Source: Eledone cirrhosa
Lineage: Eukaryota
Assembly: GCA_964016885.1 (NCBI GenBank)
Contig: OZ024740.1
Location: forward strand, 382,230,001 to 382,294,000
Direction of reading: 5' to 3'
DNA: 64,000 nt
The position numbers and the translations under genes are program-made. This document shows positions 35,033 to 45,456 of the stretch, piece after piece (positions within the stretch are counted from its first letter, which is position 1; each line of letters opens with the position of its first letter). Below the pieces are notes generated by a model, which was not told the DNA's origin, did not search any database, and saw only the letters and a list, made by a program, of their open reading frames with translations.

Positions 35033-35487
35033 CCCCGGTGTTAGCATATCTACGGCTTCCTAAAACCGTATTTCTTTGGAGATACGAAATATTTATACAT
35101 ATTGTATAAAGCTATGCTTGAAGCGAAATCCTATTTCTTTTCTATTATAAGTTGAGCCAACTTAAGCAGCTTCATATCAAATGAGATTAATCACCTCATT
35201 TACACAGACGAGGAAACTATATGTTCTCGTCTGTCTTCTAGTCCAGCAGCCGCAAGCAGTGGGAGGGACCGTCCTGACGATGGCCAGTTAAGCCTGAAAT
35301 GCATATACGGTTGTCCCCTTGCTTCTGCTGGATATCACCAGAGGGCGTTAGCCCCCCCCCCCCACACACACACACCCCAGTGCTTGCACAGCTACGGCTT
35401 CTTAAAACCGCATTTCTTTGGAGAAACGACGAAATATTTATACATATTGTATAAAGCTATGCTTGAAGCGAAATCCTATTTCTTTTA
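35033..35487 (+). mobile_element. Retrozyme-like unit (family D), about 1.3 monomers with terminal redundancy
   Basis: ctacggcttc recurs at 35050 and 35392 (period 342); contains a hammerhead; flanked by (TA)n. Confidence 0.75.
35269..35310 (+). ncRNA. Type I minimal hammerhead (family D)
   Basis: CCGTC-CTGACGA-t-GGC cagttaa GCC-t-GAAAT GC ATA^TACGG; palindromic stem III ATGCAT. Confidence 0.7.
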
Positions 35488-36071
35488 TATATATATATAT
35501 ACAACAAAGGAAGTGTGGTAAAGAACCACCAGGTGGACCTTAACGCATCAGAGTACTCGATACTTAGTGTAGTAGAGTGGGTAATAGGAAAAGAGTCAGG
35601 ACCTCGACGACTGAGCTCCGGCCGTTTCGACAGCTAAATCTGAACTAACCCAGTAGTGTTAGGACGGTAGTAATGTAGCTGGCTGCAGTTCAACATATAT
35701 TGCACTTCTCTGTACCTCTCTATTTCCTCCTCTCCTACGATACATATATCCTATTATATATATATATATATATATATATATATATATATATATATATATA
35801 TATATATATGAGTCCATAAATAGCTCTCGAAACCGCTTGAGCTCTGCTGTCGGACTCTTGAACATTTTCATATATATATATATATATATATATATATATA
35901 TATATGTATGTATATGTATGTGTGTGTCTGTGTGTGTATATATAGAGAGAGAAAGAGCGTTTGTGTAGAAAAGGCGAGTGCGAGAGAGGGAGAAAGAAGA
36001 AAAATTAGGCAAGAAATGTTGGCGATTAAAGATATATTATTGATGCCGGAGATTTAAACTACACCCTAGAC

Positions 36072-36392
36072 AAGGGGTTCTCATCGTGACCATGTGGACC
36101 ACTAGTGGTCCACAGGAAAATGCGTGTGATCCACAGAAAAATTTTGATCCATGCATTTGACTTACAGCGCTGTTCTTATTCTTCGCATAAGTACGACTTC
36201 AGCTGTTTATTTGCGTAGATTTTTAGGCACTGCCACATGATAATAGCATTTTCTAATTCATTGAAAAATAAAACATCTACTGATGCTTATAAGTAGCAGT
36301 TCTATTACAAAAGATTTAAACGTTTAGGTGGTCCACAGGAAAAAATTACTTATTTTTGTGGTCCACAGCGAAAAAAAGGTTGAGGACCCCTG
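36072..36392. mobile_element. Non-autonomous hAT (Charlie-like) DNA transposon
   Basis: TIRs aaggggttctca / tgaggacccctg; 8-bp TSD ccctagac / ccctagtc; subterminal gtggtccacag repeats. Confidence 0.75.
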
Positions 36393-36696
36393 CCCTAGTC
36401 CATAGTGTATACGACGTGTAGGGTATTTAACAGCTGGCGGCGATCATCTCCTCTCTGGAAAAGGAGAGCCAATATGGAAGAGAAATAGAGAATCAACCTT
36501 TGTACTGGACTGGCACTGTTTTGATTATGAAGCTCGAAAGGATGAAAGGCAAGGTTGACCTCAACAGGATTTGAACTCAGACAGCTGGAATGAATATTGC
36601 AAAATATTCTATTCGACGTCCGAACAACTCTACTAATTTGTCGTACACACACACATATATATATATATATACATATGCATACATATATATATATCT

Positions 36697-36970
36697 AAAG
36701 TCTGTGTTCAGTCAGAAGGGTCATTTGGCCAGTGCTTATCCCGGTTCCATGGTGTGAAGCGGTTGAGAGTACAAGACTCCCCCCTGGGCAGGACGCCAGT
36801 CCATCGCAGAGTTAAGCCTCCAGCTATCGCTGCTACTCATTTTTAGCTGAGTATACAGGAGCAACGTGAAATGAAGTGTTTGGCTCAAGAAAACAAACAG
36901 GCAACCCAGGATTCGAGCCCACACCATTTTGATCGTAAGTCTAACACCCTTACCACTAGGCCACGTGCCG
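36697..36970 (-). mobile_element. tRNA-derived SINE (CORE/V-like)
   Basis: A box tggcctagtggtaag, B-box-like gctcgaatcc, ttcttgagccaaacacttca and ggactggcgtcctgcccagggg segments. Confidence 0.65.
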
Positions 36971-37169
36971 TTACTATATATATATATATATATATATATA
37001 TATATATATATATATATATATATATATATATATATATATATATATATATATATATATATATATATATATATATATATATATATATATATATGTATATATA
37101 TATATATATATATATATGTATATATATGTATATATATATATATATATATATATATATATATATATATAT

Positions 37170-37543
37170 ATTCTAGGAGAAGGAAAACTCTGATATAACA
37201 CCTGCAACCCTGATGGTATCCAATGATGTTGACTTGTTCTTCTTTTTGGTAAATATCATCTTGGTTAAGAGAGTGGGACTGGCTTTGTGCAGTGCCTTTG
37301 CTCATTATAAAAGCTTCACGGCACAGGCATTGCTTTATATCTGGAGATCTCTCTGCACTTGTCGTCACATGGTACCATGGGCCCAGCACTATGTGTCAAT
37401 AATTGTCACATGTGTAGTTTTGTGCCAGAGTTTTCAAGTCGCTGGCTGGACTAAAAAGTCACACTCGTTCAGCGCATCGGAAGGGGTTCTCCTACATTGA
37501 TATAAAGTAGTGGCCGTACTCGAAAACGAGTTGGCAGCCACCA
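37170..37543 (+). mobile_element. RTE 3' end copy
   Basis: Homologous to 31119-31529; ends gagttggcagccacc(at)n. Confidence 0.65.
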
Positions 37544-37667
37544 TATATATATATATTGACTCTTATGTATGTATATATATATATATGTATATATATATTT
37601 ATGTATGTATATATATATATATATGTATGTATGTATATATATACTGACTCTTAAGAGTCAATGGCCA

Positions 37668-38074
37668 TCCACAATCACCGGGAGAGATGACCCCTTAGCC
37701 TTTGTCAAGGCAGAATTCTAGGAGAAGGACAACTCTGATATAACACCTGCAACCTTGATGGTATCCAATGATGTTGACTTGTTCTTCTTTTTGGTAAATA
37801 TCATCTTGGTTAAGAGAGTGGGACTGGCTTTGTGCAGTGCCTTTGCTCACTATAATAGCTTCACGGCACAGGCATTGCTTTATATCTGGAGATCTCTCCG
37901 CACTTGTCACATGGTGCCATGGGCCCAGCACTGTGTCAATAATTGTCACAAGTTTGTGCCAGAGTTTTCAAGTCGCTGGCTGGACTAAAAAGTCACTCGT
38001 TCAGCCCATCGGTAGGGGTTCTTCTACATGGATATAAAGTAGTGGCCGTACTCGAAAGCGAGTTGGCAGCCACC
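37668..38074 (+). mobile_element. RTE 3' end copy
   Basis: Homologous to 31119-31529, same 3' terminus. Confidence 0.65.
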
Positions 38075-43262: not shown

Positions 43263-43549
43263 GGTATATATATATAACGAAGGAAATATGGTAAGGAAAC
43301 AGATGGACCATAACGCACCAAAGTACTCAATACTTAGGGTAGTAGAGTAGGTAATAGGAACGAGTAGGACGATTAGGACCCCGACGGCTGAGCTCAGTCG
43401 TCGGGGTCCTACTCGTTCCTATATATATATATATATATATATATATATATATATATATATATATAATTGAGATAAGCGGAACATGTAAGATTCAAACAAT
43501 TTTTTTTAATAAAAAAAAATATATAATTTAAACATTTACCTATTCCATT

Positions 43550-43631
43550 TGCTTTTACCGACGGTTTCACCTTACAAAAGATTGGGGATCCTAGAAGACC
43601 TCCAAGGAAATGTTCGGATCATCAGAGAGCA
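43550..43631 (-). ncRNA. Type I hammerhead (family G)
   Basis: Reverse complement: TGCTCT-CTGATGA-tCC...GGt-GAAACC gtc GGTA^AAAGCA. Confidence 0.7.
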
Positions 43632-44036
43632 TTTTCCTTACCCAGGACAAAAGTCCCAGGAAGGGCAACATTTATTGTCACCTGCCAGCTAGCACAGGAT
43701 CGAATGAGGCCGTAAACTTGACTTGTGCATGGACCAGCCTTTAGTAGAAGCAGGAAGTAAACATAGACGTGTTGTCTATCACGCCACTAAAAATAGCAGC
43801 TAAATAAACAACGGATTTGTTCTCTTCATAACGGAGAAAATATAAAAGGAGATTAATAACCCCATATGTACTAAGTACCCCTGGAAATATATACGGTGTC
43901 TATGATACACTTGTTGTTCCATGGTATTAATTTGACTTACCAGAACTATAAAAATCAGATAAACAGAGCAAGGAAGATTCCAACACATTTTTTAAATAAA
44001 TTCAAAAATATAATTTAAATATTTACCTATTCCATT

Positions 44037-44118
44037 TGCTTTTACCGACGGTTTCACCTTACAAAAGATTGGAGATCCTAGGGATCTCCAATGAAAATGT
44101 TCAGTTCATCAGAGAGCA
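44037..44118 (-). ncRNA. Type I hammerhead (family G)
   Basis: Reverse complement: TGCTCT-CTGATGA...ttggagatcc cta ggatctccaa...GAAACC gtc GGTA^AAAGCA. Confidence 0.7.
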
Positions 44119-44191
44119 TTTTCCTTACCTAGGACAAAAGTCCCAGGAACGCCAAAACAATTAATCTCCTTTTATATATATATATATCTGA

Positions 44192-44400
44192 CGATCGACT
44201 TTCGTCAAATCGGACCGAGGAAACAATGTTTCCGATGGTCTTTCCAGTTGCTAATACTATCTATCGGTCGCAGCTCCTGGTAGAAGAAGCAACGTGAAAT
44301 AAAGTGTCTTGCTCAAGGACATAATGCTTCGCCTTGTCCAGGAATCGAACTCACAACCTCAAGATTGTGAATCCACTTCTCTAACCACTCAGCCTCACGC
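44192..44400 (-). mobile_element. SINE family 2
   Basis: Homologous to 4883-5085. Confidence 0.7.
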
Positions 44401-45085
44401 CTTATACACACACACACACACACACACACACACACACACACACACACACACACACACACACACACACACACACACACACACACATACACACACACACACA
44501 CACACACACATATATATATATATATATATATATATATATAACGAAGGAAATGTGGTAAGGAACCAAGTGGACCATAACGCACCAAAGTACTTAGGGTAGT
44601 AGAGTGGGTAATAGGAACGAGTAGGACCCCGACGGCTGAACTCAAGCTGTTTCGACGGCTAATTCGTTCCTATATATATATATATATATATTAGTCCAGC
44701 CCGTAATTCGTGTTGTTTGTTTGCAAACAAACAAACAGCCCGAATTACGCCGTACAGTGTTTAGGCAATCACGCCACCTTTTTGTTCATCACTGACACAG
44801 GAACGATGTACTAGTTTCAAGCTTATTACCGTAATTCGGGCTGTTTGTTTGTTTACAAACAGACAAACCGAGCATTATAATAAATGTTCGGTAAACCGAT
44901 ACGTGCATATGTATATGTGTGCTTGTATGTATATATATACATACTACTGTACGTCTGTATACATATATGTATGTACGTATACATACATACTATATATATA
45001 TATATATATATATATATATATATATATATATATATATATATATATATATATATATATATATATATACATATATATATATATTATA

Positions 45086-45456
45086 TATAGATATTTTGTA
45101 TTTCGAAAGAAATACGATTTTAGGAAGCCGTAGCTATGCGAATACCGGGGGCTAACGCCCTCCAGCAGAAGCAAGGACAACCGTCTATGCATTTCAGTCT
45201 TGACTGGCCATCGTCAGGATGCGACTGCTGGACTTGAAAACAGCCTAGAACATATAGTTTTCTCGCCTGTGTAAATGAGGTGATTAATATCATTTGCATA
45301 TGAAGCTGCATAAGTTGGCTCAACTTATAATAGAAAAGAAATAAGATTTCGCTTCAAGCATAGCTTTATACAATATGTATAGAAATTTCGTATTTCGAAA
45401 GAAATACGATTTTAGGAAGCCGTAGCTATGCGAACACCGGGGGCTAATGCCCTCTG
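45086..45456 (-). mobile_element. Retrozyme-like unit (family D), different permutation
   Basis: tttcgaaaga recurs at 45101 and 45393 (period 292); homologous to 35033-35487. Confidence 0.75.
45181..45222 (-). ncRNA. Type I minimal hammerhead (family D)
   Basis: Reverse complement: GCATC-CTGACGA-tGGC cagtcaa GAC t-GAAAT GC ATA^GACGG. Confidence 0.65.

Follow-up and report, generated by a model that had tools for sequence, protein, structure and literature searches.

The 64,000-nucleotide stretch of Eledone cirrhosa DNA analyzed here (the window; assembly GCA_964016885.1, contig OZ024740.1, positions 382,230,001–382,294,000 of the forward strand) contains two copies, A and B, of a short repeat carrying a hammerhead ribozyme, here called family D. 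We consider it probable, at roughly 0.85, that family D is a non-autonomous Penelope-like element (PLE) of the class of animal retrozymes that lack long terminal repeats (non-LTR retrozymes), copied into (TA)n tracts by a borrowed PLE enzyme. The combination of two fixed 3′ sites with random 5′ cuts makes it likely that a Penelope-type retrotransposon enzyme inserted the copies into TA microsatellites.

The family D unit is 323 bp long, as given by a consensus of 35 units, has a GC content of 44% and is non-coding, its longest stop-free frame being 77 codons. Most copies are 96–98% identical to the consensus. The 29-nt hammerhead core has 671 exact matches in the 3.0-Gb genome and its reversed control none, so the family is not due to chance; counting these exact core matches only, its size is at least 671. 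Another motif of the unit, 26 nt long and located outside this core, gave 798 matches genome-wide, again with none for the reversed control.

The ends were mapped in 94 distinct insertions with 166 arms (100 loci minus five duplicates and the window's own), 28 of them chosen by BLAST and 66 by a hammerhead pattern, the pattern set lying entirely on contig C1. In the latter set, two intervals that together make up 45 of the 323 unit positions contain 99 of the 115 outer 3′ ends, the modes being 70 and 117. Because the BLAST alignments overrun into the TA tract by a few bases, the true ends are placed at ~66–70 (the near site) and 110–117 (the far site), ~45 nt apart. As these intervals were set post hoc, a second sample of 38 new loci was drawn with another motif and with the intervals fixed beforehand: 48 of its 56 3′ ends lie in the same two intervals. 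The 5′ ends, in turn, are spread across the unit (chi-square p 0.66, all 166). A (TA)3 motif is present within 30 nt of 112 of the 146 near or far ends, versus 12% of random places in the window. The longest TA match within the unit (position 193) is almost never used as an end, which indicates that microhomology alone does not select the 3′ ends. Equivalent 3′ ends are seen in an older sister family (L189–L212) that has ~70–84% identity to family D and a short extra hairpin.

The majority of the insertions (72/94) are inverted pairs, whose two arms meet 5′ end to 5′ end. These comprise 48 near+far, two near+near and one far+far pairs, together with 21 that have an end elsewhere; thus, 48 of the 51 classifiable pairs have one arm at each site. 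The 18 inverted pairs of the second sample are distributed in the same way, with 11 near+far, no near+near, no far+far and seven others. Among the new details of family D, this strict combination of one near and one far start site is the most useful. Neither a description of the family nor a count of near/far pairing was found in the titles and abstract openings of the papers listed; the family or its parent may be present in supplements (e.g. the PLE consensus file of PMC8557442), Repbase or Dfam. At the arm-to-arm junctions, 0–4 nt are common to both arms in 55 of 73 cases.

The second arm could also arise if the first cDNA folded back and primed its own copying, or through later DNA rearrangement, rather than from a second priming event; we regard this as unlikely. 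Rare variants are indeed common to the arms of an insertion (15% versus 1.6% between loci), one arm fits inside the other in 24 of 47 near/far pairs, and self-priming has been proposed for rotifer PLEs in the account of PMC3846280. However, neither arm is contained in the other in 23 of the 47 pairs, an arrangement that later deletion at the palindrome center could mimic, and fold-back leaves unexplained why the second arm should stop at the opposite one of the two fixed sites.

With two priming events, the following sequence may be proposed. A PLE endonuclease would nick both strands of a TA tract, and each nick would prime reverse transcription at an internal position of the RNA: unit ~66–70 for one and ~110–117 for the other, ~120 and ~165 nt past the ribozyme cut site. 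Copying would then proceed back across unit junctions and cut sites, halting at random, and the two cDNA ends would be joined by 0–4 nt of microhomology to give an inverted pair; alternatively, a single arm would be fixed, as in copies A and B.

Copy A (35033–35485, plus strand) covers unit 1–323 and then 1–~113, is flanked by (TA)n on both sides and has its 3′ terminus at the far (tailed) site. Its second pass (35375–35485) holds the near site (~35434–35447), which is followed by the ~45-nt tail. Copy B (~45090/45095–45456, minus strand) covers unit ~310–323, 1–323 and 1–~66 and has its 3′ terminus at the near (tail-less) site, joined to a (TA)n tract (44958–45094); its second pass (45095–45162) is 96% identical to 45387–45454 and carries the subfamily variants of copy B. 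A self-BLAST of the window was run with microsatellites masked, the unmasked run being swamped by them: the first ~111 nt of copy A recur at 35375 (offset 342, 90% identity), 68 nt of copy B recur at an offset of 292 (96% identity), and the two copies align with 81% identity over 325 columns (E 1e-75). These values agree with the original prediction, made from the window alone, that both copies exceed one unit, with periods of 342 and 292, and share a single unit; its non-coding hammerhead unit of ~320 nt, in the size range of retrozymes, is likewise borne out by the consensus. The period of copy A exceeds 323 because a poly-C/(CA)n stretch has expanded where the units meet (35352–35378, plus strand), and that of copy B falls short of it because of 17-, 3- and 10-nt deletions; their identities to the consensus are 96.6 and 94.3%, respectively. 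The two copies stop at different sites, the far one in A and the near one in B, which accounts for all of their different terminal segments. The free circular permutation that had been read from these segments does not hold, as the 3′ termini sit at two sites in both samples. The same prediction had named termini fixed across copies as evidence against itself, and here the answer is divided: the 3′ ends are fixed and the 5′ ends vary.

Its proposal that reverse transcription ran past one unit is retained, although the PLE tail, the inverted pairs and the (TA)n target were overlooked: 72 of the 166 arms are longer than 323 nt and all 72 run on into another unit, and arms cross the cut site. A search aimed at long arms recovered arms of 742–868 nt and one array of ~11 head-to-tail units (C2:83920630–83923935, L181:3131–6435), which also ends at the near site. 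These lengths bear on the view that the copies derive from an autonomous PLE as its truncated 3′ ends (pseudo-LTRs, pLTRs), its coding part not having been reached, a view that we hold to be quite improbable. According to PMC8557442, PLE insertions are mostly 5′-truncated, with the same tail and inversions, and many PLE families are present in this genome. Nevertheless, every over-unit arm, up to 868 nt and 11 units, enters another unit, the longest frame does not exceed 77 codons, and the single-arm loci are devoid of a common coding 5′ flank. An open reading frame (ORF) with reverse transcriptase (RT) and GIY-YIG domains, which would be expected of an autonomous PLE, is absent from the family D unit, and the long arms give further units.

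Candidate donors of the enzyme are abundant. The genome has at least 10,596 GIY-YIG candidates, 150 of which were scored, and the loci fetched carry RT frames with a C-terminal GIY-YIG of at least two kinds, PLE-type ORFs being abundant in the genome. From their motifs, we take these two kinds to be Neptune-like and Poseidon-like. Long intact RT + GIY-YIG frames of 938 and 1096 codons, stop to stop, are present at L131:3809–6622 and L133:775–4062, respectively. Three of 70 GIY-YIG loci hold copies of family D or of its sister family, all outside the PLE coding stretch. The sister family and other mini-families have in common a hairpin motif immediately ahead of the near end (2,616 matches), which is likely to be the binding site of a common enzyme. 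No coding partner was found in the 5′ flanks of the single-arm loci or among the PLE fragments adjoining copies, and a 34-nt match to one Neptune-like 3′ untranslated region was rejected as a sign of a partner, being of low complexity. The parent of family D was not found in the loci examined, which does not exclude its existence.

Several observations bear on the nature of the template. Only five of the 166 5′ ends are located at the cut site (270–280), versus 5.7 expected, so there is no stop there; in the second sample, none of 48 arms stops at this site, with 34 crossing it and 14 stopping short. In addition, the passes and arms of one insertion have subfamily alleles in common: five of 67 loci are mixed at site 35, where 23 are expected, and one of 73 at site 43, where ~21 are expected. 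Conversion between arms could add to this likeness within an insertion. At one locus, L165 (C14:18742879–18743432), the two passes of one arm differ in subfamily alleles, which points to a switch of template or to a source that was mixed. Taken together, the over-unit arms, the crossing of the cut site and the shared alleles call for a circular or uncut multimeric template, or for precise jumps, and do not choose between these. We give slightly better than even odds to a circular monomer, predicted to form by hammerhead dimer cleavage and host ligation, and slightly less than even odds to a multimeric transcript left uncut or to template jumps from end to end. It is a different matter whether a circular RNA was primed anywhere along the circle to give freely permuted copies. 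This would account for the over-unit arms, the seamless junctions, the scattered 5′ ends, the lack of a stop at the cut site and the homogeneous passes, but it is refuted for the 3′ ends, which are restricted to two sites with one of each per inverted insertion, and we consider it very improbable.

The family D hammerhead (unit 238–279) has both catalytic boxes, is of type I and has a predicted cut after position 274. Its stem I is predicted to extend into a long interrupted helix, stem II has 4 bp (3 bp in the subfamily containing copies A and B) and stem III is a palindrome of 6 nt. Since this stem is palindromic, with 2 bp, the ribozyme is predicted to need a dimer, and a short palindromic stem III is the hammerhead form described as needing one in PMC4209133. 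The 6-bp stem III duplex was evaluated at −4.7 kcal/mol; the catalytic dimer was not recovered when co-folding was run without constraints. An Rfam scan contained no hammerhead among 90 matches at E ≤ 1, with AT-repeat noise only, and the folding energy of the unit does not reveal the strand (z −6.8 for plus and −10.0 for minus). In copy A, the type I hammerhead (35269–35310, plus strand), with a palindromic stem III of the predicted dimer type, lies within a predicted extended stem I (35243–35331) and has a predicted cut after 35305; a G>T change at 35306 disrupts stem I at its first pair beyond the cut site. In copy B (45181–45219, minus strand; predicted cut between 45186 and 45185), the 17-nt deletion takes away the 5′ strand of stem I and a mismatch is present in stem II. 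Both stems are intact in the family consensus, as had been predicted, while the defects, described earlier as complementary, reflect independent decay and not designed complementation. Copies A and B carry one hammerhead each; L155, L181 and other loci show a further hallmark of animal non-LTR retrozymes.

The sister family retains the hammerhead fold: in 17 hand-picked sequences from the two families, 94% of cells pair and four of 10 pairs are changed on both sides. Each double-sided change is a single event between the two families, so that the counts are not independent; they nevertheless support selection on the fold, which would be kept through compensatory changes. Such covariation, along with the dispersed 5′-truncated copies, the two internal 3′ ends and the lack of poly(A) and of a tRNA head (no tRNA in the listed ARAGORN output for the doubled unit at a relaxed threshold), speaks strongly against a DNA-level satellite or a short interspersed element mobilized by a long interspersed element (LINE) and merely bearing a hammerhead-like motif, even though one array has a 5-unit duplication and LINE fragments are present in the window.

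The reading of family D as a PLE-dependent retrozyme must be weighed against several results that do not favor it. As to the ends, 24 of the 166 3′ ends lie outside both sites, and the 5′ ends of the second sample are somewhat in excess at unit 1–32 (14/56). As to the partner, the unit was not found as the terminal repeat of a PLE in any of 70 loci among the at least 10,596 GIY-YIG candidates, nor was a PLE frame found within 1.5 kb of the hairpin motif in any of 30 loci. Mixed alleles occur at sites 186–199 in five to six of ~32 loci. In the ~11-unit array, 10 of 10 units have a hammerhead variant private to it, versus two of 152 elsewhere, and the array shows a 5-unit higher-order periodicity (14.1 versus 3–8 shared variants per kb). 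This periodicity weakens its explanation as a single rolling-circle event on a monomer and implies that DNA-level duplication or a multimeric template contributed; such arrays could themselves supply linear multimeric RNA. Finally, in the in vitro work on an anole PLE summarized in PMC11167929, hammerhead cleavage was dispensable.

Beyond the PLE-dependent reading itself, it is possible, though we propose it tentatively, that an inverted insertion is the product of one PLE dimer on a single 323-nt RNA circle, whose subunits would start at the near and far sites on opposite strands and would both cross the sealed ribozyme junction. If so, family D would be a minimal natural substrate, a single mechanism would account for PLE tails, pLTR tandems and inversions, and retrozyme circles would be proven as PLE templates. 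The earlier proposal that animal retrozymes ride PLEs drew on the hammerheads they share, on their co-occurrence and on similarity to pLTRs; the family D insertions themselves bear the footprint of the PLE enzyme, with counts. The 323-nt unit, the two mapped start sites and the hundreds of young copies make the formation of tandem and inverted PLE copies directly testable.

The window contains several other PLE-type mini-families. Another abundant hammerhead mini-family (52606–53128; also L102:2477–2871 and L234–L263) has inverted and tandem copies, two 3′ ends ~35–40 nt apart and the pre-end hairpin motif found in the sister family of D. Minimal hammerhead-like motifs are present at 3321 (plus), 45707 (plus), 46124 (minus) and 1054/1062, three of them inside other repeat families and some palindromic. 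Near-perfect palindromes beside (TA)n at 1203–1857, 45572–45787 and 1001–1115 are likely inverted PLE-type insertions. Short PLE-like GIY-YIG and RT motif fragments are located at ~43142 and ~47759 (both minus), and broken LINE-type elements with endonuclease, RT and zf-RVT Pfam matches at 14363–17800 (plus), 10857–11837 (plus) and 18396–20333 (minus).

Animal non-LTR retrozymes are outlined by Cervera and de la Peña (2020, PMC7229834) as 150–450-bp repeats with type I hammerheads that are expressed as circles, with PLEs proposed as their movers, and a 2026 preprint by Li, Clavereau and Pollet (10.64898/2026.07.22.740005) links retrozymes to pLTRs in vertebrates. With the elements presented in these two sources, family D shares a non-coding, tandem unit of 323 bp, a GC content below 50%, a type I hammerhead, co-occurring PLEs and a range from monomers to multimers. 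It differs from them in being mostly dispersed, as copies of one to two units and inverted pairs rather than long arrays, and in its palindromic 2-bp stem III with a predicted need for a dimer.

The anatomy of PLE insertions, as sketched in PMC8557442, PMC3846280 and PMC8969392, includes partial tandems, an inverted 5′-truncated copy, a 30–40-bp tail at one end and microsatellite targets, and circular templates for over-unit PLE copies were proposed in 2014. Like the endonuclease-bearing PLEs presented by Craig et al. (2021, PMC8557442) and Arkhipova et al. (2013, PMC3846280), family D has 5′ truncation, partial tandems, an inverted 5′ copy, a tail at one end and a microsatellite target. Unlike them, it is devoid of an ORF and its tail is ~45 nt instead of 30–40; the target duplication is unreadable within (TA)n. 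Non-autonomous Chlamys elements such as MRC1, which are given in PMC8557442 as non-coding, pLTR-forming, head-to-tail and PLE-dependent, resemble family D in these respects, but they are algal and have 3′ sequence in common with known autonomous partners; no such partner was found for family D in the loci examined.

A mechanistic parallel is offered by the Anolis Poseidon element of Frangieh et al. (2024, PMC11167929), in whose in vitro account the tail corresponds to the segment separating two internal RT start sites, cleavage and extension affect both strands of the DNA, and a dimeric protein is predicted. Family D similarly has two predicted internal start sites downstream of the hammerhead cut, the first in a predicted hairpin loop, and an AT-rich target. 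The Anolis sites, demonstrated in vitro, are within the start of the ORF in an autonomous element, whereas those of family D are deduced from genomic ends. Judged by its sequence, family D carries features of both a retrozyme and a non-autonomous PLE; the class of element is already known, and the value of family D is mechanistic.

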